Part shown: in pieces, positions 1 to 36,231 of the stretch
Layout: every line of letters starts with the position of its first letter
How positions within the stretch are numbered: the first letter of the stretch is position 1
Origin: Atractiella rhizophila
Lineage: Eukaryota
DNA: 41,197 nucleotides
Assembly: GCA_021432655.1 (NCBI GenBank)
Contig: MU271417.1
Location: 27,849-69,045 of the forward strand
Direction of reading: 5' to 3'
Made by a program: the position numbers and the translations under genes
The notes under the pieces: model-generated
Seen by the model: the letters and a program-made list of their open reading frames with translations, nothing else
What the model was told of the DNA's origin: nothing
Database searches by the model: none

Positions 1-798
1 GCTCTACGCAGTCTTTGTAGCCGAGGACGATTTTGGAAGGATCAAAGAGTTCTGGCAGCATACGGGGGAAGGGATCAGCAGTCGGTTCGCTGCCAGGTGC
101 CTCAAACTTCTGAAGGACAAGGAGGAGGCGACGGGCAAAGAACGGAGAAGATCCCAAGACGCGCCTTCGTCCCCAACGTCGACCGCTTCCCGCTCTTGGA
201 GGAGCAGATACCAGAATAAAGCGATTTCGCCCATTTTCACGCCTTCACCACCAACATCACCCACGACCTCGTCTCCCATCCTTCAATCCAAATCAACTCA
301 GGAGGAACTGGACGAAGATGCAGATTTTTATGTGGAGGAGCGATACGGAAGGAATTTACCCACGAACCTAGGCGAGGAGGCGAAGCTCACGGTGCGCAAG
401 CGGATCGCAGGTGTATTGGGTGATCAGCTCGAAGAAACGAGCCTTCGGAATGGTTTAACCGAGGACGATGTATACTTGTATCCGACGGGCATGACAGCTA
501 TCTTCAGAGCCCACGTCATGGTGAGAGAAGAACGGAGGGCGAAGGGGAAAGAGGACGCAAAGAGTGTAGTTTTCGGGTACGGGTTTCTCACATTGTCAAT
601 TAAACGAACAGTCCTCATGTGTCCTGTCTTCCTTCCCAGGTTCGTCTACGGCGATACTCTAAAGCTTATGGAAAAGTTTGGACCTGGATGTCACTTCTTC
701 CCGTCGGGCCAGGAGGAAGACCTCAATGCTCTCGAGAGGTTATGCGAGAAGGAAGAAATTGTCGCTCTCTATTGCGAATTCCCATCGAATCCTCTACT
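1..798 (+). CDS. Partial near-identical second copy of the cystathionine gamma-synthase gene (internal exons; cut by the window edge and the N-gap)
   Basis: Aligns by eye to 10517-11321 with mostly synonymous changes, a few amino-acid changes (A/T, R/K, I/V) and a slightly different intron. Encodes [13 protein letters not shown]...[11 protein letters not shown] and ends at the 25-N gap. Confidence 0.9.
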
Positions 799-823
799 NN
801 NNNNNNNNNNNNNNNNNNNNNNN
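799..823. other. Assembly gap (25 N)
   Basis: Run of 25 N. Confidence 1.
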
Positions 824-882
824 ATCAGAAAGTGCGAGGATAGAAAAATACCTGATTGAAATATCGTAAATGACCAGTTGTC

Positions 883-1397
883 TAGAGACGGTGTTGTTCT
901 TTGCGTTTACGGTAGACGGAGGCCCTCACGTTGGTTTGTGCCCGTAACGTACGCAGTGGACACGCCGCAGGTTCTTCTTCGTGTTCACATCGAAACTTGG
1001 GCTTCAGTGACATAGGTACGTAAGACAAGTTGTCTTAGTCTCACGATAGAGTCTGGAACACGGCAATCGTTGACGGTGTTTTTTTTGGTCGAGTCCCAGT
1101 TCAAGTTTTCACTATAAACTGCTGCGTTGTAACCTAGATTAAAAACCTAGATATGGTGGACACTTGTGGTGCTGACGCTGTCGATCGCTGTCGTAATGCT
1201 ACGAGCTATGTTTGTTGAAGTCAGGTAGCTTTCGAGGCCTAGACCTGCAGAGTATAGACCTATGTCATCTTTCAAGCGGTACCGGGCTTTGAAGAGCGCG
1301 TAGACGTCGGAGGAGTTGGGTTTGCCAACCATTACTTTGAACCCTCCTCGACAACCTCTTGAAAGGACAGTGGGTTGTCCTTCTCCTACCTTTCACT
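883..1397. CDS. Last exon (third Zn2Cys6 cluster) of the triple-cluster gene at 6584-7389; read as the complement, left-to-right
   Basis: Complement reads ...ggactaac...caacag|AT CTC TGC, giving (C)DLCHNKKRKCHLPPGVQPNTGIACVTCAASKKKHKCSFEPEV...EEDGK*, about 171 codons without a stop. Confidence 0.9.
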
Positions 1398-2031
1398 CCT
1401 ATGCGGAGACCCATAGTTAATGGCACCGCGAGACGACAGCGCATCTCTGCACCCCGGGTGGGATGAATGTGGCCAGAAACAATATAGAGACATCGTTCCG
1501 GTGTTTGTATCTCAACCTCCTATCCGACTAAGTATAACGTTCATATCAAGTATCATACACTCCATTTATGACCTGTTTGGTCTCACGAGGCGTTGAGACA
1601 GGGACGTTTATCTTTTCAATCGAAGTTAACTAGTGTAGAGGTCCTATTTGCTTACCTTTCTAGTCTATTTATTGCGTCCTATTTAAATTGTAGAGACGAG
1701 CGCCAGCTCGAGACTTTAGAGTTCATCTTTCTTCGAAAAAGTAGTGTGGAAGGCGAGATTATTGACCTTATTTTGTTTACGAATGGTCTAATAGGATAGT
1801 AAGTGAAGGTCGTGGACGGACGCATAAGAGGAACGAAGCTGCAACACTGTCTCAAAAGCTAACTACGTGTAACTACTTGTACCGCGTTAGACCAGTGCAC
1901 TTGTTCTTCTCGAGAATCCTGCAAAACTATTTAACCAGTTTACATGATGTCTGTCTACTTACATTTGTTCGAGTTTTCTGTTTCCATAGTTGAATATGTC
2001 TCTCTATTCACCTTATAAACTGTCGCCGGGT

Positions 2032-5000
2032 AGTGAAAGAAGAGGTGCCGTTGGTAGGAGAAGAACCGACACTCCAATCACATCCCTCCCTGCTACCGCG
2101 TCAAGGACGAAGTAGTGAAAGGTGTTAAAAAACACCGAGAACTTCACAACCTAGATGTTACCGAAGGAATTCAAGGAACTGACTGCAGCCTAACAGCACC
2201 TCGTTCACTTGTAGTCCAAGGGGGAAGCAACATAGGAGCCTCTGGTAAAAGAACAGACATCTCTGTTTCCATAACTCTCCCCTACACGAAGCTGCTGGCT
2301 GTCTACTGACGCAAACCCACCAGGGATTTAGCAAGTCCAGGGACCTTAGAACCACCTTCAATAGGCGCAGCGGACGACTACCGCTATCGCTCCCAACGCA
2401 GTTTTGACCCCTAAGCGGTCAGTCTAAACTCCTACCGTCTACTTACAGCCATAACTCTCGCCTTGGTAGGTGGACCAGACACTATCTCTGCATCTGCAGA
2501 AACAGAAGGCAACCACTACCGTAGCGTTGAAGTCGAAGAAGGGTGTACTATCCGGGTTCCAACCGACTCACGCGGAAGAGCTCTAGCCGCCCTCGCTGAC
2601 TCTGCAGCAAGAGTTTGCCTCAGGGTAGTTAGCAGAGTCCGCCTCCGTTGTGGACGTTCGCGCCATTCGTGCTACTCCGACTGCGACCTCCTTCGTAGTT
2701 TGGAGTTAGAAAGGAAGGGAGGTATACAGGTAAGGGTGTTAAAAGAAGTCTTGACGCTCATGAAGTAGAAGGTGGGTCGAGAGGTCGGTCAGGAGAAGGG
2801 GTGGTTCGGGTTGTCGCAAGGGAGGAGGCAGAGTAAGCGGCCGGGTTCGAGGAAATGTACTTTAGGGACATGATCAAGTAGTTGTAAGTGTTCCCTTGTA
2901 GCTCCTTGATTCTTATTCATTCCTCCTGCTAGTCCCAATTAAGAACTCCCTTAGCGCTAAAACTGCATCTTCGTCACCCTAGACCATTAAGCGTACAAAC
3001 CAAGCATGGCTTACTATTGAACGAGCCTTGAGCCGCCGACCTGTTGACGAACAAACTATACGAGTAGGAGGACTAAGACTGCACTACGAGGTAGAAGCCG
3101 CTCATTTGGCAATCTTCACCGGACCGCTGAGTCGTGACCTCGAAGGCTTCCTCACACGTGCTGAAGTTAGTCACCTCATCAATGACCACGACGTCCCCGT
3201 CTTCGCGGCACCACTACGTTCGCCCCAGCATACTTCGACCTCTGGCTAAACTGCTCACATCCTTTCGATCCGGAAAGACCCTCACCTGCGCGGTTGAGCG
3301 AACGATCTCGGAGAGGTAGCCATCACAAGAGAAATCTGTCGTTAAATCGGCGTCACCTTCACAAAGGGGCGAACTTGAAACCGGCAAACGCACCAGCCCA
3401 TAGAAGTAGTAACTGACTTAGGCTTAGAAGAAGACGAACCCAGCCAAAGGTGCATAGTAGAGGGAAGCGAAAAGCAGCGGAAAAGGGGGATCGTAACTGA
3501 TAAAATAGGAGATGTCCATCGAGCAGATGAAAAAACTCAAAAAAGCAAAACCGACGAGCACGGAGGAGACGAAGTAGGCAGCTCGAGAGGAGAGGTCGAA
3601 GTCCAGCTATACAATCTAGGACGGAAAATCCAGCTGGAAACGCAAACTGGACGCCAGGGAATAAACTTGGACCCCTACTACGAAGATATCGGCTAAGAAG
3701 GACAAGTGGAACGGCTCCAACCCTATGCGATCTCAATCTCCTCCTTCGAAAGCTGCCACCTTGCAGTCGCGCCGATCGTCTTCCACAACCACTTCCATGC
3801 AATAAACTAACCAGGAGGAGCCAGAAGCGAAAGTGCCTAAAAGAAGGTACTACTCCTTGTCGAGACGAGAAAGCTGGAGAGCTTCGAGCACGATTTGTAG
3901 TTAGTCTTGATAGAAGCAGTCGTGCTCGTTTGTGTATGTGCACGATCGGCAAAAAGAGAAATTGCTATAGACTCGGAGCGGGCAAAGTAGCAGCTGGTTC
4001 AGTCGTTAGACAGGAAAGAACGGAGCTGAACCATAAAAGCAGTGGCGGCGCCGTTGACACCTCCACCTCCTACACCTACCTCTCGGTCCCCGTTGTAGAT
4101 GTTCGTTTCTGCCGACACCGCACCTTCCTAACGAGCGCAGAAAAAAACGGACTCTGGAGCAGTATGCTGGTCCTGACTGGCCTTCCTCAAGCAATACGCA
4201 CAGTACTTTTTGTGAAAAAGCTCTCGCAGACCTCCAGAAGCGACATCCTGAATCACGTAAGCATCATTGACTCCACTACCTAAGGTCACTAGAAAGGTGT
4301 TACTGTCTACACAAACAACTTGGTCCATTTCCAACCTGACTTCTGTTTAGGAGGAAGCCTTGAAGGAGGTGCCGAAGTCCTCAGCTTCCTCGAAGTTGCT
4401 GGTTGACTTGAAGGCCGTCGAGTTGCGTACTTCCTCATCCTAGGAATTACTGCCAGCTAGCACCCCTAAACCATCGGCCGTCTAAACTACCCCGCTCACG
4501 TCCAAGTCGCGGACGTCGTTGTTGATGGTGTCCTACGCCATCTAGTGGGCACTAACGACCGAGCTTTAGCTGTAGGTAGCGATTTGGTCTTGGGCATGAT
4601 CAACTCTAAAGTTGCTGACCATTCCCGTTGAGTAGCCAGCACACAGCTCTCCTCAAGAGGCGGCGGAGACGAAGACGTCGTTAGCCCTCTGGTCTACTTC
4701 GACCCTGAAGCTGTTACCCAGCTCCATGTAGGAGGCACCAGTTTTCTCCACAGGCCTCAGGGACCAGTCGTAGGTTGGGTCTACCTTCCCGTTGGAGTTT
4801 TTTCCAACTCGACATAGTACTCAGCACTCAAAGCTTCTATCAAGAAGGAGAGGTCGCGGTCCATCAGGGCAAGATTGACGAGAGCGGCGTCCATGGAGAG
4901 GACGGAGATGAAGCGGTAACCGGGGAAGAAGTATGAGATGATGTCGACTAACACTTGACTATTCGAGCTGTTGTCCAACTCCTTGAAGGAGGCATTACTG

Positions 5001-6540
5001 TCTATGATACCAAAGTAGCCCGACACAACAGCTTAGTCGCCATCTCCCGCATCAGTTTCCAAGTACGTTGGGCGAAAGTTGTAGAACAACTTACCTAACA
5101 AGCTACCGTCCGCATCCAACAAAGTCTAATGGCAAGCGCGGCCGCTAAGGAAGAAGCGACCGACTTATGACCAACCCGCGAACCAGAAGGAAGGGAAGGA
5201 CCTGGTTTCCTTGTAGAACCCTAGAGAGGCAACGGAGTCCCCGGCTGTCTCAACCTCATGCGTTGACAAGTCCATCGTTTAGACCGCACTCCAGCTGTAA
5301 ACTTGGCAGTCGTTATCAGCTCCGTGCGAGAAATAGGGGAGGGAGGCGAAGTAGAGGTTGGAGAAGGTGGTGCAGAACTTGTTATTGTCAAAGTAGGACA
5401 AGGAGAACTTGTCCCGCCTGCCAGAAGCTTTCTTCCACTCTCACTCTATGCAGCATCTAGCCATGACGCAAACTGTCCTCTTCCCCACCAGCCAAGTAGG
5501 TGGAGGTCGAGGTTCACACTCACACTCTGAAACTGACCCCACCAGCCAAGGAGGAGTCCACGTTCCACTCTGCCGCACTGCTTACGAAGGAGAAGGTTAT
5601 CGACGTTTCCTGGCCTCTAAGCAAGAAGGTGAAAGGGGTAGAGGTGTAGAGGGAGAAGGGGAGGGCTGAGATGTAAGCCGGACTTGGGAAGAGATCGTAG
5701 GCATAGACGCGGCTACGGTCGACTTCGTAGTTACAGGCGCTTGACCGGCATCCAGTAGGGAGGGCTGCACACGTGGTTTCTCTTCAGGAGTTGGAGGTGA
5801 CTTTTAAGTCGGTAAGGTCGACATAGCTCCCTTAAATACATTAGGAGGTGGAGAACTAATTTGGCCGATCATAGGTAGTGTAGTATGGAACGACAACGTC
5901 ACTGTCACAGCAGCCATCCAGCTTGAAGCCTCCTCCGAACCAAAGGGTCCGACAGTTATTAGAAGACCTATAGCCGTCCCGAGTACGGCAACGGCCTAGC
6001 AGTTTGCTCCTCCCTTCGCTTAGTTACTTGAGCAGGTTTAAGCCATGTACCTCGTACAGGTCTAGGACCTCTAAGCAGAGGTAGGGGAGCAATGGGAGGA
6101 CAATATACATTAATCGGAGAAAAAGAAGTTTATTTTAGTTAACTACGTACACCTTTCTGCTTGGACGCGCCGAACTTCTTCGTTGACGTAGGGCAGTGAA
6201 GAAGAGGTCGGAGATAAGCGCAGAGGAGTTGGAGGTAGAGAGGGAGAGCGGATGAGGAGCAGCAGGGAGGATAAGAAGAGAGAGAGATTGAGGAGGTTGA
6301 GGGAGAGGTTGACGAGGTAGGGGAGGAGGTTTGAGTTGAGGAGGGTGATCACGAGGAGGTGGATTAGGGTAACTAGAAAGTGAGAGCTAGGTAGGAGAGG
6401 GAGCAGGGTTAGGAGGTTAAGCAGGAGGAGGGGTGAGAGTGGCCGTAGAAGAGGAGGAAGTTGTCGTCGAGAGCGGGAAGAGAGTTTAAGGAGATTTTAG
6501 TTTGCAACCGGCTAGGTATAGGAGGTATAGGAGGTAGCAC
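2032..6540. CDS. Large acidic, low-complexity hypothetical protein (5' end missing); read right-to-left without complementing
   Basis: Reverse reading gives long open stretches such as SGNGMSPADIQKIIDSLGNQ..., ...IIRYEPNMRITRSHCFYVKIAIPSRINPDRPPYLFLVPRCSL... and the C-terminus ...QPRRGWLPWRRK* (stop 2034-2032). Canonical introns near 6163-6099 and 2702-2653. Several apparent single-base frameshifts. Not every segment was translated. Confidence 0.75.
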
Positions 6541-6583
6541 TTGACTGATGAAACAGGTACGCATCTTATGGAGTGATCCGCAC

Positions 6584-7389
6584 CACAAGCTGTCCTTCTT
6601 TTCGATTTTGTTTCCAAGGTTGGATTTGCAAAAGCATGGCTGGTGGATGCGACGATAGGGATGGGCACGTTCACGTATGGATCCACCGAAAGCGATGGTT
6701 GGGACGGAGATGGTAATGCCGACGCTGTCTCAAAACTGCAGTGTTGCTGGCGATCAACGCATCTATTGCAAGGCGTACCATCGTTGATTTGTTTGCCGGG
6801 AGGCAGAGCGCACTTAACTCTGCGTTTGTTGCAGTAGTCTGTTGTACATTAGCTCATTGATTTCTGGGAGGGAAGAACGTACAACATGTCCTCTGCGGCA
6901 TGACTCTTCTCTTTATTTCTTGAGTTGAGCTTTGTGGTATGGGGGGAGGCACAAAGTATGTCATCGCCGTCACGTATGTCAAAGCATCACCGCTTGGCAC
7001 TCCTTCTTCCACTCGTGACGACGATAGATAAGTTGCCGTGTTAACCATGTTGTCCAGTCTATCCAAAGCTGCAGCAGTAGGAAAGCTGAACGGGCTGTGG
7101 CTTGATGAAGAGGGCCAAGTGCCTTCATCGATGGCAGAGACATCAACGCTTCTACCGCTGTATGTGCATTGCAGACCCCTGCTTGTGCACCTCACGCATT
7201 TTGGAGAGCCTTTAGAGTCAAAGCAGCGGGTCGTGTCAACCTTGCATTGATCTTTCTCAACGGTGGTCAGCAAGGACAATATACATGAATCTAGGACTTG
7301 CCACATCGGCGATTGTCGCTTGGATTAGGAGGGTTTCTCTCTCTCCTCTTCCGATTCCTGTGTCGCCCTCGCTGCGAAGACCGTCCCAT
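6584..7389 (-). CDS. Zn(II)2Cys6 protein with three tandem binuclear clusters (exons 1-3; exon 4 lies in block A); about 408 aa
   Basis: Exons 7389-7302, 7251-6883, 6838-6584, then complement of 883-1397. Clusters: CDQCKVDTTRC-x8-CVRCTSRGLQC; CYYCNKRRVKC-x13-CNRCVDRQQHC; CDLCHNKKRKC-x13-CVTC-x8-C. Each intron is phase 1 just after the first Cys; the first is GC-AG. Confidence 0.88.
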
Positions 7390-9205
7390 AGCGAGCAGAA
7401 GGGAGCGAACCCCTCAACCCTTAGAGCGTGGAAGTGCAACAACACTGAAAAAAAGTGTCTCAATGGATCGCGTTTCGAGCGATTCCGTCGTATTGACTTT
7501 TTTCCTTAATGGAGGGAGACGAGTGCTTTGCAGCAGAGCTTGTTAATAGCGACCATTCCTGAAAGCCCTTGACATAAAGGACAACGCATTTTCTTTTGCG
7601 CCAAAATGCGGATCGCGTTCCCTTTCACAAAGGAATGAAGGCCAATATCCATACCCTTGTTTAAAGTAAACAAGGGCTGTATATCGTCCCTTTGTTGGAG
7701 AACAATATTATGTGGGTGGAAACACGTTCTCGAATGTCTTACGCTGGACACCAATGTGCACGCGAAGTTGTAATCGAGAGAGAAAACATGAGATAATGGT
7801 CGCAGCCAATGAGGAAAAGATTTCGGGAAAGTTAAGCATCCCAACGGTCGTCGTCATCATCATAGTTGTTGGGGACGGTATACTTGAATTCGACCAGTAG
7901 TGCATTCTTTGCTAGCCCCAGGAACAGTCAACAATCAGTGTTCGTACCTAGATAAAGACATGATCCTTCCGATTATTCACCAGTTGTTGCAGAACTTTGA
8001 CAAGTAGTAGAACCAAATGTCATGTCGCCATCTCCACTCTTTTCTTCCTGGTCCGTAGTCGTGGATCTCAGTAGAGATTGAGTGAAGTGACAAAGGAAAA
8101 GTAATGAATCAGCAGCCCGAACCCTTAATTGGAACATTCTTCTCAACCCCGACGAATCTTTCATAGAAGTTGGCGGAAGAGAACTGGGACAGTAGCTTTT
8201 CGAAGGGCTGACAATTCGACGGAGAGGTCGTTTAAAGTCGACGGTCCCCATATGATCTCGTTACCACGCATTCCACGAAACGAGTCTACTGTTCGAGTGT
8301 TCGAATTGGACGCAGATGAGCGTCCATTCTTGCGGACAGGTGCCACTGTTGCCTCGTCAGGTTTCCGAGAAGGGATCTGCAAGGGACCTGGTGAGGAATT
8401 TCAGTGAGTACCAATAATTACGTGGCAGTTGTAACAACGAGAGACAGACCAAACGTATTTGGTGAGCGTTTTGAACGATGTAGCTCGTATGTTAGAAGCC
8501 GAAAGGAGACTGGGTTCTTGATCAAATATTGACATAGCTCCAACCACAACCTGCGAGAATTGCTCGATTCTTCCTCTAACATCCGCTAAACAAGTCTTAC
8601 TTGCACGTAGTCCTGTAAACTTCTATTTGCCCCAATGCATCGCTTTGTCCACAAAGATAAGCCACGTATGATTTAACCTCATTGAAGGACGCCAAGGTTG
8701 CTCTGTGCAACTTTGCGTAAGAACCGAAGTCATGAAAAGGCTCTTAATGTCCTTCGTGTCCTTCCTTAAATACTACGCGTCCTACAGCTACGCTCAGCTT
8801 GGCGCAGACGTACTTTCACGCAAAGGAAGCCTCATTTGAAGCTCCACCCCACAACTTCACTCGCGTGAGCATGCATATGAAAAACAGCCATCCAACCAAG
8901 AGAGAATTCGAGCGTCAGTCTACCCACGTCGTTGAGCTCGCTAGCGCTCCTTATGAACCGGGCAGGAATGAGACTTCAACGCGCTTTAGCAGATTATATC
9001 ATTTAAATTGGCAAAAGAAGCCTCGAAAGACTCTCAAGAGCTTCTTCCTTGGGGTTATGCGGAATTGGGAGTTCAAAAGGAAAGTAGTCAACGCCAGCGC
9101 ACAATGAAATCGGAACCAGCCGAAGAGTCACTCACGTCGACTCGATCATTTTCTCTTCTTATGAGATCCTGCTTGAAATCTCGCTAACAGGACGGCCAAT
9201 ATACC

Positions 9206-12144
9206 ATGTCAGAGGCGCTAGGGTCTACAATACCCGCTCTCGAACGACACGCTGTGTCCGTGAGCTTGCCAACATGGAAAGATGTGGTTGACTATGAGCT
9301 GGGGGAGAAGAGGGTGATCGGGAGCATGAACAGTGGGTATCCGAGGTTTTTTTGGCATCAGGATGTTCAAAAGGTGTGTCTTTCTTGTTGTGAGGAGAAT
9401 AAGTGGATTGGGAAGTGTAATGAGCCTCTGTATTCTGTGTCGGCGGAGTCACAATGCTGCATGCTTTATTTGTGTTGCCAGGTTCCTTGAGGTTGCAAAT
9501 ATTGAATACGTGTCGATATATATTTATTTGGATCAAAAACGGTTGAAAGAGGCTCTTTAGGAGTCCCTTCCTCCGTCAATCCTGCAAACTTAGTCCGTGA
9601 GCTATGTTTTGGGCATATTTCTATACTCATGTTTTAAATCAGGGGGGAAATGTGGTAACATGACTTATTTTAACCGCGAATAAGCGTATCCCTTTCTTAC
9701 ACTAAGCTAGGAAATGGCACAACTTCTTTATCGTATTTCGACGTTTAGATCAAAAGGGGTTGTACGTAGTTGACAATGATTCAGTTATCTATCCCGTCTT
9801 TTGACCATCGTGCTCGGATTATTTCACTTGTAGCGTATCGATTTGAGATTCCTTCGTTGGTTCTCACTATCATTTAGTTCCCATGCAATCATCTCATCCA
9901 AGAATAATGTGGTTATCTTGCATCTGCTCTCGAAAAATCAGTGGTTGTGATGACTTTTCGTGTCCTTAAGTAAGGCTATCAATGTAGCTTTTCTCCATCC
10001 GTGAGATTCTTTGTCGCCATTTTAGTGCGCTGGCCAGGCCAGATAAGGCGATTAGCGCATCCCATTATTTGCTGCCAACTTCGCACGAGTTTTCTCTGAA
10101 ATTGAGGGCCACCGAATGTGTTACCAATCGTCGTAACTTTCGTGACATGAAGTTCTGCTAGCGGGTTTGTTTTTTGGTACATTTTCTCCCGACACTATCC
10201 CTCAATACCTCATACTGTTCGTGCTGTCCAGTCATTTGCGCTGCCACAAGAAAAGCTTCGGATCTTCGCTATGATTCGCAATCGCATTCTGCCACCACCC
10301 TGTTATATGGGACACAAAAACTGACTTACTCCTCTCACGTTTGGGTTGATAGTTATGCCGCATCATCGAAACCGAATACGGTTCTCAAAATCATTCAGAA
10401 CGCTGTATATTATTCCCAATTGGCTCCTCAGTGGAAGAATGTCTCAACTTCCTCTCCTCCCGCACTCCTCCCGTCAAAAGTCGATCGCTCCCAATCGACA
10501 TCGAGAAACGCATCCGGCTCTACGCAGTCTTTGTAGCCGAGGACGATTTTGGAAGGATCAAAGAGTTCTGGCAGCACACTGGGGAAGGGATCAGCAGTCG
10601 GTTCGCTGCCAGGTGCCTCAAACTTCTGAAGGACAAGGAGGAGGCGACGGGCAAAGAACGGAGAAGATCCCAAGACACGCCTTCGTCCCCAACGTCGACC
10701 GCGTCCCGCTCTTGGAAGAGCAGATACCAGAATAAAGCGATTTCGCCAATCTTCACCCCTTCACCCCCAACCTCTCCCACGACCTCGTCTCCCGTCCTTC
10801 AATCCAAATCAACACAGGAGGAACTAGACGAAGATGCGGATTTTTATGTGGAGGAGCGATACGGAAGGAATCTACCCACGAATCTAGGGGAGGAGGCGAA
10901 GCTCACGGTGCGCAAGCGGATAGCAGGTGTATTGGGTGATCAGCTTGAAGAAACGAGCCTTCGGAATGGTTTGACCGAGGACGATGTATACTTGTATCCG
11001 ACGGGCATGACTGCTATCTTCAGAGCCCACGTCATGGTGAGAGAAGAACGGAGGGCGAAAGGGAAAGAGGACGCAAAGAGTGTAGTTTTCGGGTACGGGT
11101 TTCTCACATTTGTCACTTAAGCGAACAGTCCTCATTGTGCCTTGTCTTCCTTCCTTCCCCAGGTTCGTCTACGGTGATACTCTAAAGCTTATGGAAAAGT
11201 TTGGACCCGGATGTCACTTTTTCCCATCGGGCCAGGAGGAAGACCTCAATGCTCTCGAGAGGTTATGCGAGAAGGAAGAAATTGTCGCTCTCTATTGCGA
11301 ATTCCCATCGAATCCTCTACTCAAGTCATCTGATCTGCGGCGCCTAAGGGAGCTGGCGGATCGGTTCGGATTTGCCCTCGTCGTCGATGATACCGTCGGC
11401 AACTTTTGGAACATCGATGTCCTGTCGATGGCGGACGTCGTTGTTAGTTCCCTCACAAAGATCTTTAGTGGAGACTGCAACGTCATGGGTGGAAGGTGCG
11501 ATTAACCTACCTCACTGAATGTGCAGTCGACGCTGACTCCATTACACAACAGCCTGATATTGAATCCAACCTCACAACTGTACGGCACGCTGAAGAGGAG
11601 TATCGAGGCCACATATACTGATGCCTATTTCTCCGAGGATGCTATATATATGGAACGCAACTCACGGGACTTCATCAAACGAATCAAGAAGATCAATAGG
11701 AACGCCGAGATGTTATGCGACTTCTTTGAGTCCTCCCGCCTTCATCCTCGCACCCAAAAGCAGGTGATCAAACTAGTCTCCTACCCAAAATTCGCCACGC
11801 CACAAAACTATGCGCGTTGTCTACGTAATCAATCTACAAGCGAGGAAAACTCGACGGTGGACAAGCCTGGATACGGTGGCCTCTTCTCGCTTACTTTCAT
11901 GTCAGTGAACGCGGCAGCGGCATTCTACGACAACATGCCATTCTCAAAGGGACCGTCGCTCGGAACCAACTTCACTCTCGCCTGTCCTTATACGGTTTTG
12001 GTACACTTCAACGAGCTGGAATGGGCAAAGAACTACGGAGTCGAGCTGGCGTTGGTCAGGGTTAGTGTGGGGATGGAAGATGAGGCGACACTTAGAAATG
12101 GCTTTGAGAAGGCTCTGAAAGCCGCAGAGGAAGCAGCGGAATAG
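9206..12144 (+). CDS. STR2: Cystathionine gamma-synthase (fungal Str2/Met-7 type, PLP-dependent)
   Basis: Exons 9206-9373, 10353-11092, 11163-11495, 11553-12144. Motifs: [55 protein letters not shown]-lysine [32 protein letters not shown]. Confidence 0.93.
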
Positions 12145-30367: not shown

Positions 30368-30516
30368 ATTGATTTATGTTTATTGAAGAGTAATGAAATG
30401 AAGAGGAGAACGATAAGTTAACGGAGAGCTTCAATTTGTGGCCTTGTGGAGAACAATATGTACTGAGAAAGAATAAAAAGCTTGTTGTGCTGTCCGTCAT
30501 AGATTGCTCTGCTGGA

Positions 30517-30972
30517 NNNNNNNNNNNNNNNNNNNNNNNNNNNNNNNNNNNNNNNNNNNNNNNNNNNNNNNNNNNNNNNNNNNNNNNNNNNNNNNNNNNN
30601 NNNNNNNNNNNNNNNNNNNNNNNNNNNNNNNNNNNNNNNNNNNNNNNNNNNNNNNNNNNNNNNNNNNNNNNNNNNNNNNNNNNNNNNNNNNNNNNNNNNN
30701 NNNNNNNNNNNNNNNNNNNNNNNNNNNNNNNNNNNNNNNNNNNNNNNNNNNNNNNNNNNNNNNNNNNNNNNNNNNNNNNNNNNNNNNNNNNNNNNNNNNN
30801 NNNNNNNNNNNNNNNNNNNNNNNNNNNNNNNNNNNNNNNNNNNNNNNNNNNNNNNNNNNNNNNNNNNNNNNNNNNNNNNNNNNNNNNNNNNNNNNNNNNN
30901 NNNNNNNNNNNNNNNNNNNNNNNNNNNNNNNNNNNNNNNNNNNNNNNNNNNNNNNNNNNNNNNNNNNNNNNN
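30517..30972. other. Assembly gap (456 N)
   Basis: Run of N. Confidence 1.
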
Positions 30973-33080
30973 AAGTGTGGCGTTTGTAGTTGTTTCGTGT
31001 TTCAGCTACGTCTACGTCTCGTTTCCTCCTGCTTGGTGCTTTTCTTTCGAGGAACACTAAGAAGTGGCACGCAAAGTCTCTGTCCTTCGCGAAGACCTAG
31101 ACTACGCTGCTCTTCTCCAAGGTGAAGAACAGCGCCTCGCTTAGGGTCAGCTAAAGGCTAAGCAGGCGCTGAGACTCAGGAAAGTTGGATGCGTAGCCCC
31201 CTAGTCCCACTCTCTTATAGAACCTCCTTCGCCGCTCGATGAGTGAAGAGTTTGTACATTTTACACAGCAGAACTAGGGTGCCAGAGTAAAGACGGAGAG
31301 GCGCGAGCCGAAAGTGAAGAAAGAGCTGCCTTAGAACGGATGTCACGTTCACGAGTTGTGAGAAGTGTTGGGATGGATGATTTCTTCTATTGCATGGTAA
31401 ATTAGGATGTAACTCGGGAGCAGGAGTGGGTGAGGTAGAAGAGTGACTGTCGGCAGGTTCCCTATAGGCTTATTAGTGGAAAGAAGGAAGGGTTTAAGGA
31501 TGTTTGCGAGAGGTGTCGGAGGAATTCAAAGACTCAGAGGAGGAACGAGGTTCGTGGGGATAAGAACTCGAGAGGTAAGAAGTTTATTAAGGATATGGCT
31601 AGAGATGTCAGGACTCGGTAGGCAAGGTGGGAGCGTCTCTGGAAGAGGGTGAAGCACGGGTTGAGGAGTTGGCGGAGGTTCTCGTAGCGCAGGACAAGCC
31701 GGCAGGTTCGAGGAACTACCGACTCGCCTACTGTGTAGGAGGAGTGTACGACTATGTGGCTTTAGTTGCCGGCGGGGAGGTGTGACAGACGTTAGAGTCT
31801 GGTTTTGCTGCTCGAGCCTAGGCGTAAAGAGCACGCAGGCGATTTCTGGAAGAGAGACTCTGGGAGCTTTAGCTCAGGTACAAAGCTGTACATGCTCAGC
31901 TCCCTGCTGAACTAGAACTCGAGAAGCAGCACGCACTTGAAAGGGAAGAACATATAGAGAGAGGGGGAGAGGAAGGGATACAGGAAGTCGACACGGCACG
32001 ACATGGTGGCTCACCACTCCTAGAGAGCTAGGCTATTGTAGACTTGGCCATGTAGAGAAGGCCACTGGCACTGGCGTAAGAAGAAGAAGCGCAACCGTTC
32101 ACTTCTTCATCGTCCTCCATGCTTCAACCGAGGGAAGCTGTGTGCTCGCCGCCACCTGTCCTACCCCGGTCGTCGCCATCAACGTCCTGCTCGTCTCTAT
32201 AACCGCTATGAGCTGAAGGAGGAGAAGCTGCTTGGTAGCAGGAAGGATCGTCAATTCCGGCTGCGACTCCAGCTACGAGGCAATAACGACTAGGGATGCG
32301 GCCTCCATGGCTACAACCCGTTGCCTCCGCCCGCCGAAAGTTACCGTGACTCCCTCCACCACACCAACGAGGTGTAGGGCGAGACCTACCGTGCCTTCTA
32401 CAGTAGAAGCAAACCACGAGTTCTCTAGCAACCCTAGATGGTACGGAGGAGGCGGAGGGTAAGGGTCCTCTAACCTGACCTGTATAACGACCACCCCGCC
32501 TGCCTCCCTGCCCCTCAATTCCATCGAACTGTCCAGGAGAAGGAGCCAGCATCAGCAGTCTAGTTGCAACGGCAGAGACCGCCCTATCTTACCCAACCTC
32601 CAGTCTCTCAACTTCTTGCGCAAGTTAACCAGGCAGAGGTAAAGCACAAGTACAACTAGTACCACCACTCTCTCCGTTCCCAGTTACCCTCCGACTACCC
32701 GCTTGACCATTAGCAGCTTGTTCAACTCTGATACCAGAGGGAAAGAGGAGAACCTTCTTCTACTTCTCGGGCGTCCAAGTCCTCTCTCCTTCCTTTTCCA
32801 CAACAACGACGACGGACCCACCACCACTACCACCTCAAGCCACACCCACCTCCTGCTTACCAAAGCGAAGGCGAAGAAGAAGAGTGAAGGAGGGAGTCTT
32901 TTCGCTTCCATCCAGCTTCCTGTACCTAACCAGAGGATAGCAGCTGCCTCGCCTGCCTCGCGCCACCCACCTTAACCTCACCACTCTCACTGACCCGTTG
33001 TACCTCCACCTGCGCTTGCCTCACGGTTACCCTCTCACCCCAAGACACGTGGTGTTGTTACTTGGTTACGGGCGGTCTTT
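30973..33080. other. Block B: sequence reversed but not complemented
   Basis: Right-to-left reading without complementing gives a Myb-repeat ORF with canonical introns. Its last donor (31035) splices to the normal + strand exon at 33107. Right boundary is uncertain by about 10 nt. Confidence 0.95.
31036..33043. CDS. Reb1/Nsi1/DMTF1/TTF1-type multi-Myb DNA-binding protein (bulk of gene, read right-to-left uncomplemented; start probably in the gap)
   Basis: YKKGKFTHDEELKIKSSL..SSFWSEIADSVEGRPLISVYQHVRRMCHPLSHQGAWTAEQDAMLLEAVEELGTKWEKVSARVERMAQDCRDRYRNYL..RGAWSKEETQKL..IPWTAVSEKMEWVRTRAQCRIKW|..DESEIDWDSLRDKKWNLFSSHQIQKRF. Two apparent homopolymer frameshifts, near 32900 and 32412. Confidence 0.9.
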
Positions 33081-33106
33081 CATACTATCCTCTGCATGTG
33101 AAACAG

Positions 33107-33231
33107 AAATCATGGATGCCATTCAAGCGGATTTCGATGCGTTTAAGAAGAGCAAGAGGCCGAGGAGGAAGGGAGAGCATCCGAAGAAGAAACAATACGT
33201 TTTCTCTGAGGATGACATGTTTGATGATTGA
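33107..33231 (+). CDS. Terminal exon of the Reb1-like Myb gene in block B
   Basis: aaacag|AA ATC ATG GAT joins ...KNHKELSFR G| in phase 1 to give ...ELSFREIMDAIQADFDAFKKSKRPRRK...DDMFDD*. Confidence 0.85.
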
Positions 33232-33491: not shown

Positions 33492-36231
33492 CTAATCTGA
33501 ATCCAATGACACAACGACGTTTTTGGTCCTATAAACTTTTTCTGGCGGTCTCGTCGGCTTTCCACCAAAATCTGGTAACTCTTCATCCTCACTCTCTTCC
33601 TTGTGTTTCCCTGGTCTGCTTCGAGGTGACGTGTGGGCTTTCGAGCGTTTCGGGCTCTTTCTGATTTCCTCTTCCGCAGGCTCAATATCGGAGGAAATCT
33701 CGACATAGTCCAGCTTCTTCGTCGTCTTCTTCGGACGACGGGGAGCAGCGTTCGGTTTTGAGGAGGTAAAGAAGTCATTCACTTGTTTCTTCGGGGGAGA
33801 AGACGTGAGGTCTATAGGACCAGCGAGATGCAGTTGGGAAGAGGAAGCCGTGAATGGTGCATGAAAGTTCGACGGATCATTGAGGTCTGAAAGGGGATCG
33901 ATGGCGTGAGATCGTTTCTTGGACGTTTTCTTCGCCGCGTTCTCTTTTTGAGACGGAGATGGGAAACCTGCTTGATCCTGCTGAGGGGAGGATGTGAGAT
34001 CAATTGGGCGAACAGGTGTAAGATGTGAGGAGGAAGCGTTTGCAAATGGGTTGCTATTCGAAGGCCCTAGGTCACCATACCGATTCGCCAGTGGGTTGAG
34101 ATTGCCCAGGCGTTCTCTGGAAGGACCTGCTCCACCGTGTTGGAGCTGCTGCTGGACGTCTTCTTCCTCCTGCAAGGGATCAAGAGTCGGAGTTCGATGC
34201 CTTTTCTGTTTGATCGGGTGTCGCTTTTCCCGGTACTGTTCACCCTCCGCATCGCTAGCTGTGGGTATAACGAGGTCGGAAGATTTCTGCTTTCTCTTTG
34301 CTCTCGGCCTCTCCACTCGATGTTCCCCTTCTCCGTCACTAGTCGTAGGGACAACAAGGTTCGCAGTCTTCTTCCTCCTCGCACCTGTCCCCTTCGTCCC
34401 TCCCACGCTATTGGCTTTCTTCTCCTCCCTCTCCCTCCTCTTGAGTTCTTTCTCCCTTTCTTTATCCTCCTTCGCATGCCGCTTCTCTTCTTCCTCCTCT
34501 TCCTTCGCATCCACCAGTTCGGGACAGACCTCTGCAAGTATGATCCTCGGGAGATACTCGTCGATGGGGACAAACGGGTCTTCGAAGATCACGTTCCTTT
34601 TCTTCGAAGGTGAAGCTGGTTCGCCATCCTCATTGTCAGGTATGGGGCGCTCAAAATCGTGTTCTGCCCTTTCCGGAGGGTAGTGCTTGTTGAGATATCT
34701 TCCAGCTACGCGTGCGTATTCGCTCACATCGATCCCAGTCCGATATTCAAGCAAGTCACCAGTGATCGGTTTCGTGCGTTCCAGATCTATGCCCAAAAAA
34801 TCGAAAGCATTGCCGCTCTTCCCCATTGCGCCACGACAGGCAGAGACAGTATCAAGGAAGAGGTCCAGATCGGCTTGTAGGCGCGGATCCTCTAGTTGAT
34901 ACCCGTCCCTCTTTTTCGCTCGCTTCTCCTTGTTCTTTCTCTCAAACGGTATCTCCTCTCCATCCAAGAGCAAGCGCCTGATCCGACGCAGAACCAAGCC
35001 CTTCCACACTCGACTCCTCAGGAATCCCAAAATCCTAATCCTGGGCCAGTCTGTCAGATATTCGATCATGAGTCGAACGATGTGCTTCAGCTCAGGTTCT
35101 TTTTGCCACTTCGGAGGAGCCGCCTCCCATCCAGGTGTATTGTAGCTGGTGACCGGATGTCGATAATAATCCCAAACTGCCATCGCAGGCCAATCGTCCC
35201 TAAATTTTGCCGCGACGACAGCGTTCCTCCTTCCCAACTTTCCGCTCTTATTCGTGGCCAGCTCTGCCTTCACGTCTTCTCTCAACCGCGCTAATTCTCC
35301 GATATCCGAACCGCGTTGAGAGATAGCCTCCAACCTTTCTGCAAATCCGAATTCGGTTGCTAGAGGCTTGGACAGCTTTGGACCTACGCCGACGACGCCA
35401 GATGTGTCGTAGTCTCCTCCCGAAAGCGTGGCCAGAAAAGCAATACGAACGTCTGTGAGGTTGAGGGTGCGAAAGATGGTGGAAGCGTGGTAGAAGTCGG
35501 GCGAAAAGGGTTGGGCTGCATCTTTGGTTGAGATGGCTTTGGACCAGTCTTTCACAACACTCGCAGCGCCGAAGAGGAGCGTGTCTCCATCGCTCTGTGC
35601 ACCACGCAGCATACGGTCCAATAAAATACATTGGCATCATACCATAAATGACAGGAAGACGAAACGCTTACAGTGAACACAACATCAATCTCCCCACGCC
35701 GATTCATCTCTGCCAATTCCGCTTCCGCCTCTCCAGGTGCTTTCCTGGTCTCGAACCCAAACGCCTCCGCGCACTGCTCAATCCAACGCTCGAATGGATG
35801 ACTATGGCCGACTACCCTCTTGTTCCTCTTAATCTTCGGCCGCTTGGGTCCATCGAAGACGAAAACTGGTAGGATTCCAAGATGAAGCAGGACGTTGCAC
35901 CTGAGGAAAAGATTTCGAAACTCGGGATTCCTTTTCACACCATGCCAATTGGTAAATAAATGTGCTCAGGTTCCCAATGACGGATGAGAGACGAGAAGAG
36001 ACACACGAGCCATCCATATTCGTTCCAGCTTGTACAAACCAAATGGACGCATCTATCCCAGCTCGTAGACCACGAAAACCGTTAGAATTTGAGGAGAGTG
36101 CCTCGTAAGCATGTCGGGCAAGATTGGTAGGTTGTTTGCAGGGAGAGAGTATGTCCCAGAGACCAGGGACTCCCTGTGGAAGAACAAAGTCAGTCCCTTC
36201 CTGCAGAAAGAAACAAAGCAGAACTCACCAT
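33492..36231 (-). CDS. GEN1/Yen1-like Holliday-junction resolvase (XPG/Rad2 family)
   Basis: ATG|intron|GVPGLWDILSP..GLRAGIDASIW..LGILPVFVFDGPKRPKIKR..APGEAEAELAEMNRRGEIDVVFT|SDGDTLLFGA..LSGGDYDTSGVVGVG, followed by a long charged, low-complexity C-terminus. Confidence 0.88.

Follow-up and report, generated by a model that had tools for sequence, protein, structure and literature searches.

Sequence Blocks in Plain Reverse Order beside Assembly Gaps Hide Genes in an Atractiella rhizophila Contig

The question raised by this locus is whether the text between positions 824 and 6540 is the DNA of the organism as it stands, or whether its letters follow each other in the wrong order. The window, i.e., the whole stretch of DNA that was analysed, has a length of 41,197 nucleotides and belongs to contig MU271417.1 of Atractiella rhizophila. 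A sequence-only reading of it had claimed that this block is reversed without complementation, and two public proteins make it possible to check the claim directly.

The Zinc-Cluster-like Gene at the Contig Edge

The following features are located at the left end of the window:

1..798, + strand: second, incomplete copy of a cystathionine gamma-synthase-like gene (Cys_Met_Meta_PP), in normal orientation, truncated by gap 1
799..823: N gap 1 (25 N)
824..6540: mirror block 1, in plain reverse order and not complemented, according to dinucleotide ratios, the 5-mer orientation score and the P0121 alignment
824..882, − strand: second part of the junction intron (59 nt), with ACTAAC before the CAG acceptor
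883..1397, true minus strand, read left to right on the plain complement: last exon and stop codon of the zinc-cluster-like gene, encoding P0121 aa 123–293
2035..6000, true + strand, read leftwards along the written + strand: putative further hidden gene, a series of five open frames
6583–6541, − strand: first part of the junction intron (43 nt), donor GTGCGG
6541..7048, − strand: 5′ part of the zinc-cluster-like gene in normal orientation; its exons encode P0121 aa 1–122, and the last of them ends at 6584

The left flank (1..798) is a duplicate of window positions 10517–11321 with a nucleotide identity of 95.3%, as determined by blastn and alignment, and a tblastn search indicated that its gene copy matches residues 112–356 of protein P0001.

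P0121 is a public protein of 293 aa named as coming from Atractiella rhizophila. When it is compared with both strands of the window as written using tblastn, matches are found to residue 126 only. Once block 1 is re-reversed, residues 57–293 form a single HSP with an E-value of 2.3e-159. The plain complement of positions 882–1394 encodes residues 123–293 exactly (171/171 residues), and the 513 coding bases compared in block 1 are error-free. The alignment and these exact residues confirm the reversal without complementation.

The exons of this gene are joined by an intron that crosses the junction. The minus-strand exon ends with ...KSKRRTAC and a G at position 6584, and coding resumes at position 883 (AT CTC TGC ...); a base-by-base check upheld the earlier proposal that the complement of 883 onward completes this exon. 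The intron is 102 nt long, has GT..AG ends, and runs from 6583 to 6541 and then along the complement of 824 to 882. This intron and the continuity of P0121 place base 824 next to base 6541, as had been claimed from the letters, and base 6540 is the gap-side end of the block.

The six cysteines with the spacing C-x2-C-x6-C-x13-C-x2-C-x7-C, noted by eye, also span the junction. The Zn_clus domain (PF00172) scores 16.9 and 18.9 bits in the window exons and 9.7 bits in P0121, and the gathering score of 21 is not reached; for this reason, the gene is named zinc-cluster-like only. In the normal flank, P0121 and the window differ by two residues, located within aa 26–31. The metagenome scan with P0121 gave 82 pattern matches and no relative.

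Composition, Edges and Open Frames of Block 1

Block 1 starts at position 824, which is the first base past the N run 799–823. Its right edge was determined by change point analysis at 6539 (4-mers), 6538 (5-mers), and 6565 (6-mers), with a 3-nat support range of 6528–6574, in agreement with the earlier estimate of about 6540.

The strand-symmetric dinucleotide ratios of block 1 are swapped relative to the rest of the window, as mirror text predicts. The TA/AT ratio is 1.56 in the block and 0.66 elsewhere; the (GA+TC)/(AG+CT) ratio is 0.88 versus 1.13, and the (CA+TG)/(AC+GT) ratio is 0.84 versus 1.19. In 1-kb bins, the TA/AT ratio ranges from 1.15 to 2.11 in the seven bins wholly within either this block or a second one described below, whereas it ranges from 0.37 to 0.90 in all 31 fully normal bins.

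A cross-validated (leave-out) 5-mer orientation score, which compares the text as written with its plain reverse, was also calculated. The mirror reading, i.e., a negative score, is favoured in 24/24 block bins (mean −22.3) and in 6/107 normal bins, while the mean of the normal bins is +25.7 (Mann–Whitney p = 3.7e-14). The score is positive in the left flank 1..798, which is consequently read as normal.

The six negative normal bins (300 bp each) begin at 8701, 12601, 26101, 29101, 34201, and 36901, and their minimum is −12.0. They were considered as further mirror pieces and rejected; we regard them as tail values of the normal distribution. No copies of the blocks were found elsewhere in the window in either orientation. 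Neither the contig start nor the pre-gap flank shares a duplicated anchor with the blocks (best local scores 8–11).

In the written text of block 1, the two longest open frames reach 250 and 201 aa, compared with 383, 309, 307, 223, 211, 202, and 179 aa in its plain reverse or complement; the long mirror frames reported from the letters are thus real. The accompanying claim that the standard frames hold no credible protein also stands: none of the nine as-written ORFs (six from block 1 and three from block 2) has a Pfam match at E ≤ 0.01. For the longest of them (250 aa), no relative was found at E ≤ 1e-10 among 1.84 billion public representatives; the search in the same set returned a single marginal match (E 6e-4) over a 36-residue stretch and nothing near-identical.

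The earlier reading had placed two genes in block 1. For the zinc-cluster-like gene, the 3′ exon is proven, and frame length and codon usage suggest that the second may be a long + strand gene. Its frames of 202, 309, 307, 383, and 223 aa form a chain of about 4 kb, and their codon-usage score per codon is 0.067–0.097, compared with a training mean of 0.065 and with −0.010 and −0.066 for as-written ORFs. The putative product is rich in Ser, Pro, and Glu.

A Second Block and the Hidden Myb Gene

The present follow-up revealed a second block of the same kind beside the other gap of the window:

30517..30972: N gap 2 (456 N)
30973..~33084: mirror block 2, plain-reversed, directly to the right of N gap 2, according to composition and P0122
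31036..32641, written + strand, read from right to left (32641→31397, 31338→31246, 31187→31036): exons 1–3 of the Myb gene, encoding P0122 aa 1–496
33107..33231, + strand: normally oriented last exon and stop codon of the Myb gene, encoding P0122 aa 497–537 with 100% identity

The right edge of this block lies at about 33066–33103, and its true adjacency is 30973|~33085. P0122 is a public Myb protein of 537 residues. Against the window as written, tblastn on both strands finds only its residues 497–537. After re-reversal of 30973–33084, residues 1–537 are colinear with the window at 89–100% identity; block 2 therefore conceals 496 of the 537 residues. The Myb_DNA-binding domain (PF00249) scores 84.6 bits in P0122 (cut-off 24.4; best stretch, aa 310–353), and it is encoded inside block 2, where P0122 aa 77–415 correspond to window 32412→31396 when the mirror order is read. 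The metagenome scan with P0122 gave 109 pattern matches and no relative.

All three introns of the Myb gene have GT..AG ends. Exons 1–3 are separated by two introns of 58 nt, and an intron of 85 nt ahead of the last exon crosses the junction, running from 31035 to 30973 and then through 33085–33106. Block 2 departs from P0122 at three places in a way that can be taken as altered homopolymer lengths, in one case with a break in the frame. Near 32413, an A-run is longer by one A, which shifts the Myb frame, and a locally shifted stretch corresponds to P0122 aa 45–49.

Three other readings of these blocks can be weighed against a plain reversal. Misoriented contig pieces beside gaps are a common kind of assembly error, and an ordinary inversion, biological or introduced in scaffolding, would likewise leave a gap-side block in the wrong sense and break the genes that cross its edge. 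The present blocks differ in that they are uncomplemented, with genes on neither written strand: tblastn on both strands as written does not recover P0121 aa 127–293 or P0122 aa 1–496. Moreover, a reverse complement keeps the TA/AT ratio and the other symmetric ratios, which are swapped here. An inversion is excluded by these two observations and can be given practically no credence.

Text that was complemented and not reversed, with the order right and the letters wrong, would match reverse-only text in both its hidden genes and its swapped ratios. However, it would leave the exon for P0121 aa 123–293 on the + strand at 882–1394, about 5.2 kb from the 5′ exons (7048–6585) and on the opposite strand to them, whereas the reverse-only order puts this exon after the 5′ exons via the 102-nt GT..AG intron. 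The 85-nt junction intron leads to the same conclusion for P0122. Given the junction introns in both blocks, this reading is excluded too and is just as extremely improbable as an inversion.

It might also be supposed that the written sequence is, letter for letter, the real DNA of the organism. No point in support of this was found, and the mirror encoding of 171 exact and 496 high-identity residues is beyond chance. The entire 5-mer composition is mirrored as well, and to our knowledge, no process of replication or recombination reverses the base order without complementing. This is the least credible reading of all. Judging from gene continuity and composition, the DNA of the organism probably differs from the written text.

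Origin of the Mirror Text and Its Consequences

In both blocks, the text starts immediately after an N run and belongs to the right-hand contig, so that both gaps in the window (2/2) carry the defect. We consider it very probable that blocks 824–6540 and 30973–~33084 are text artefacts of leftward gap extension and not the DNA of the organism as written. On this reading, each block holds the true sequence that precedes a contig edge on its left side (6541 and ~33085). Its letters come from the correct strand, but they are wrongly ordered: the base nearest to the contig comes first, beside the N gap, and the farthest comes last. Most likely, a gap-extension or gap-filling step extended the downstream contig towards the left and wrote down the added bases in the order of their addition. 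An equivalent route would be to work on the opposite strand, complement the result, and omit the reversal. Re-reversal of block 1 restores a continuous zinc-cluster-like gene and a putative long Ser/Pro-rich gene, and that of block 2 a continuous Myb gene.

Gap extension or gap filling is most likely the responsible program step, and the software error proposed earlier fits the position of block 1 right after an N gap and the same defect after the second gap. Its companion, an unpolished long-read fill, holds in part. The homopolymer-type indels of block 2, one of them frame-breaking, fit uncorrected fill reads, so that the fill may have come from such reads; however, "unpolished" would not apply in general, given the error-free coding bases of block 1. 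Errors of gap filling or contig extension from uncorrected reads are likewise adjacent to gaps and show differences of the homopolymer-length type, but the main defect here is the order of the bases rather than base errors. A literature search by phrase found no description of an assembly error of this kind.

Reversed, non-complemented sequences are used as controls in more than one paper. A passage of the Dfam paper states that the inter-bait sequence "was reversed without complementation" (PMC3531169). Such deliberate decoys result from the same text operation, which destroys homology and keeps the base composition; unlike them, the present blocks are unmarked in a genome scaffold, whereas decoys are intended and labelled. 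The mirror artefact could have been made after assembly, by file conversion, record handling, or a deliberate control alteration. Such later handling would fit the existence of P0121 and P0122, through which both hidden genes are public in the correct orientation. It would also fit the lack of a match among public predicted proteins for the longest as-written ORF, so that nothing shows mirrored text to be part of the public annotation. On the other hand, each block starts precisely where an N run stops and extends the right-hand contig, a pattern specific to gap extension, and block 2 contains indel-type differences. In addition, even the normal flank shows differences between P0121 and the window, so the public proteins need not derive from the present locus, and their existence is no proof of a correct locus elsewhere. 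Given these differences and the report of P0122 on a contig of different length, both proteins come from non-identical copies (a duplicate or another haplotype). Later handling is therefore improbable, and leftward gap extension remains the preferred explanation.

The mirror blocks are a data-handling artefact without biological novelty, and their value lies in curation and data quality. About 7.8 kb of the 41-kb window passes for orphan sequence without homologues and can be mistaken for novel DNA. Because the letters are uncomplemented, six-frame and BLAST searches are blind to the genes of the blocks; the defect breaks or hides at least three genes, and one gene model is reduced to its last 41 residues. 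Since both gaps in the window are defective, the remaining assembly is worth scanning, and the swapped dinucleotide ratios or a k-mer orientation score provide a cheap detector of mirror blocks. It is a serious possibility, though one we would hesitate to call probable, that the defect is systematic and that every leftward gap extension in this assembly, possibly also in others from the same pipeline, is mirror-written. If so, public fungal genomes would hold many gap-adjacent blocks with genes invisible to BLAST, gene callers, and novelty screens, and a TA/AT or k-mer orientation scan could locate and repair them.

Composition of the sequence beside the gaps

The window has the look of a fungal scaffold in which the GT..AG introns are short. 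A block of 5.7 kb lies immediately to the right of the first run of N (block 1), and a second block likewise begins at the first base past the other run (block 2).

Runs of N and adjacent blocks
799–823: N run 1
824–6540: block 1
30517–30972: N run 2
30973–~33084: block 2

The sequence-only reading had proposed that 824–6540 holds no credible protein in its standard frames and is reversed without complementation, and both points were borne out. The longest open frames of block 1 as written are 250 and 201 aa, against 383, 309, 307, 223, 211, 202, and 179 aa in its plain reverse and plain complement. None of the nine as-written ORFs (six in block 1, three in block 2) matched any Pfam family at E ≤ 0.01, and the longest, compared with 1.84 billion representative proteins, gave a single marginal match (E 6e-4).

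Plain reversal turns every dinucleotide XY into YX, while reverse complementation keeps TA, AT, CG, GC, and the summed pairs constant. Three ratios in block 1 are approximately the reciprocals of those in the rest of the window.

Dinucleotide ratios (block 1; rest of the window)
TA/AT: 1.56; 0.66
(GA+TC)/(AG+CT): 0.88; 1.13
(CA+TG)/(AC+GT): 0.84; 1.19
CG/GC: 1.02; 0.97 (uninformative)

Composition scans revealed the same signature at 30973–~33084. Orientation was scored in 300-bp bins as the 5-mer log-likelihood ratio of the sequence as written versus plain reversed, with training on the normal parts minus the scored bin and 600 nt on each side; three mixed bins were set aside. The score is negative in all 24 bins fully within the two blocks (mean −22.3), whereas the normal bins average +25.7, with 6 of the 107 below zero (Mann–Whitney p = 3.7e-14). 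By change points, block 1 ends on the right at 6538–6565 (3-nat support 6528–6574) and block 2 at 33084–33085 (support 33066–33103).

Genes broken at the block junctions

Full-length relatives of the normally written flanking exons were aligned to the window both as written and after re-reversal. The minus-strand query 6585–6848 retrieved P0121, a 293-aa hypothetical protein of Atractiella rhizophila. Against the written text, tblastn recovers no more of it than residues 1–55 and 57–126 (7048–6573), whereas with 824–6540 re-reversed a single HSP covers residues 57–293 and runs through the junction (E 2.3e-159). Exact-word mapping showed that the plain complement of 882–1394 encodes residues 123–293, with no differences over 171 residues; the hidden last exon occupies 883–1397. 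The junction proposed earlier, with an exon ending at 6584 and resuming at 883, is thus confirmed to the base by P0121 and by a 102-nt intron that starts with GTGCGG, carries ACTAAC upstream of the final CAG, and is split into 43 nt of normal flank and 59 nt of block 1. The cysteine pattern spanning the junction resembles a Zn(2)-Cys(6) cluster; since the Pfam Zn_clus scores are under the cut-off (16.9 and 18.9 bits versus 21), the gene is named zinc-cluster-like only.

On the minus strand at 6585–7324, this gene has three successive Cys-rich stretches resembling such clusters, two in the normal flank (those with the sub-cut-off scores) and one across the junction. They are not followed by a fungal-specific transcription factor domain, and the public model has just 293 aa. 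A 54-nt stretch (6726–6779, minus strand) is open and in frame but absent from P0121; its 18 residues, GTPCNRCVDRQQHCSFET, complete the second Cys pattern. It has GT..AG ends and may be either a small intron that keeps the frame or a part of the exon that was called wrongly.

The second gene that had been proposed within block 1 stands as a candidate, based on open frames and codon usage. The true plus strand contains five open frames in succession, spanning 6000 to 2035 in descending coordinates, with codon-usage scores of 0.067–0.097 versus a mean of 0.065 for the long normal ORFs of the window; unlike this chain, the as-written ORFs score −0.010 and −0.066. At its right end as written (6140–6540), which is the side that truly faces the gap, block 1 is purine-rich and of low complexity, with a GC skew of about +0.33 and a 21-nt tandem repeat at 6277–6331. 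It is plausible that this end is the reason why the extension stopped and a gap remained.

For block 2, the normally written exon 33085–33228 retrieved P0122, a 537-aa protein under the same species name with a Myb_DNA-binding domain (Pfam, 84.6 bits). Only its residues 497–537 are found in the window as written; block 2 conceals the other 496 of 537 residues (1–496). When 30973–33084 is re-reversed, residues 1–76, 77–415, 410–446, 446–496, and 497–537 align colinearly with 89–100% identity. All three introns are GT..AG (58, 58, and 85 nt), and the 85-nt intron crosses the junction, running from 31035 to 30973 and then through 33085–33106. Compared with P0122, the mirror reading has one surplus A within an A-run, so that the frame shifts between residues 76 and 77, and a five-residue difference (45–49) that resembles two compensating changes in C-run length; the expected bases at these differences were taken from the protein only. 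Nearby, at 33492–35965 on the minus strand, there is a 714-aa ORF with an upstream exon, a putative nuclease that we take by eye, with its GGDY-type motif, to resemble the XPG/Rad2 family.

Origin of the mirror order

An ordinary inversion of the blocks is excluded: tblastn covers both strands without a match in the blocks, and the dinucleotide ratios would stay unchanged. A complement-only error is also excluded: under it the hidden exons would lie kilobases from their partner exons and on the other strand from them, whereas the reverse-only reading links the exons by canonical introns of normal size. Together with the junction introns, these exclusions mean that the true order is the gap, the block in its right-to-left reading, and lastly the contig; each block is part of the contig on its right. 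The sequence-only interpretation is supported overall, and the same defect extends to block 2.

The most likely source of the mirror order, we infer, is leftward gap extension. A gap-extending step would have grown the downstream contig to the left, and the new bases would then have been inserted in order of addition, nearest first; equivalently, the extension could have been built on the opposite strand and then complemented but not reversed. The right-hand contig ends (1–798 and the stretch ending at 30516) have normal orientation scores, which would fit a bug confined to the left-extension path. No duplicated anchor was found at either junction. The suggestion of an unpolished fill with frameshifting indels is partly supported: the block 2 differences fit uncorrected fill reads, but the point is weak, because no errors occur in the 513 coding bases compared in block 1.

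P0121 has two residue differences from the window in the normal flank, and P0122 is reported on a contig whose length differs from that given for P0121 and for P0001 (the cystathionine gamma-synthase-like protein); the public proteins therefore derive from near-identical other copies. Such copies do exist, since 1–798 is a 95.3% nucleotide copy of 10517–11321, and P0121 may derive from the upstream one. Segment 10517–11321 is part of the complete gene for P0001 (9206–12141), while the copy at 1–798 is truncated by the gap; they differ mainly by substitutions and three small intron indels. The pair suggests a tandem duplication of about 10.5 kb or two haplotype versions scaffolded in succession. 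Metagenome scans found no independent DNA.

Phrase searches of the literature found no description of such an assembly error. In the papers found, reversal without complementation serves as an intentional decoy, the Dfam paper (PMC3531169) being one example, whereas here it is an artefact. Whether present in the deposited record or arisen later, the mirror order is not biology; its biological interest is low, and it is useful as a curation flag.
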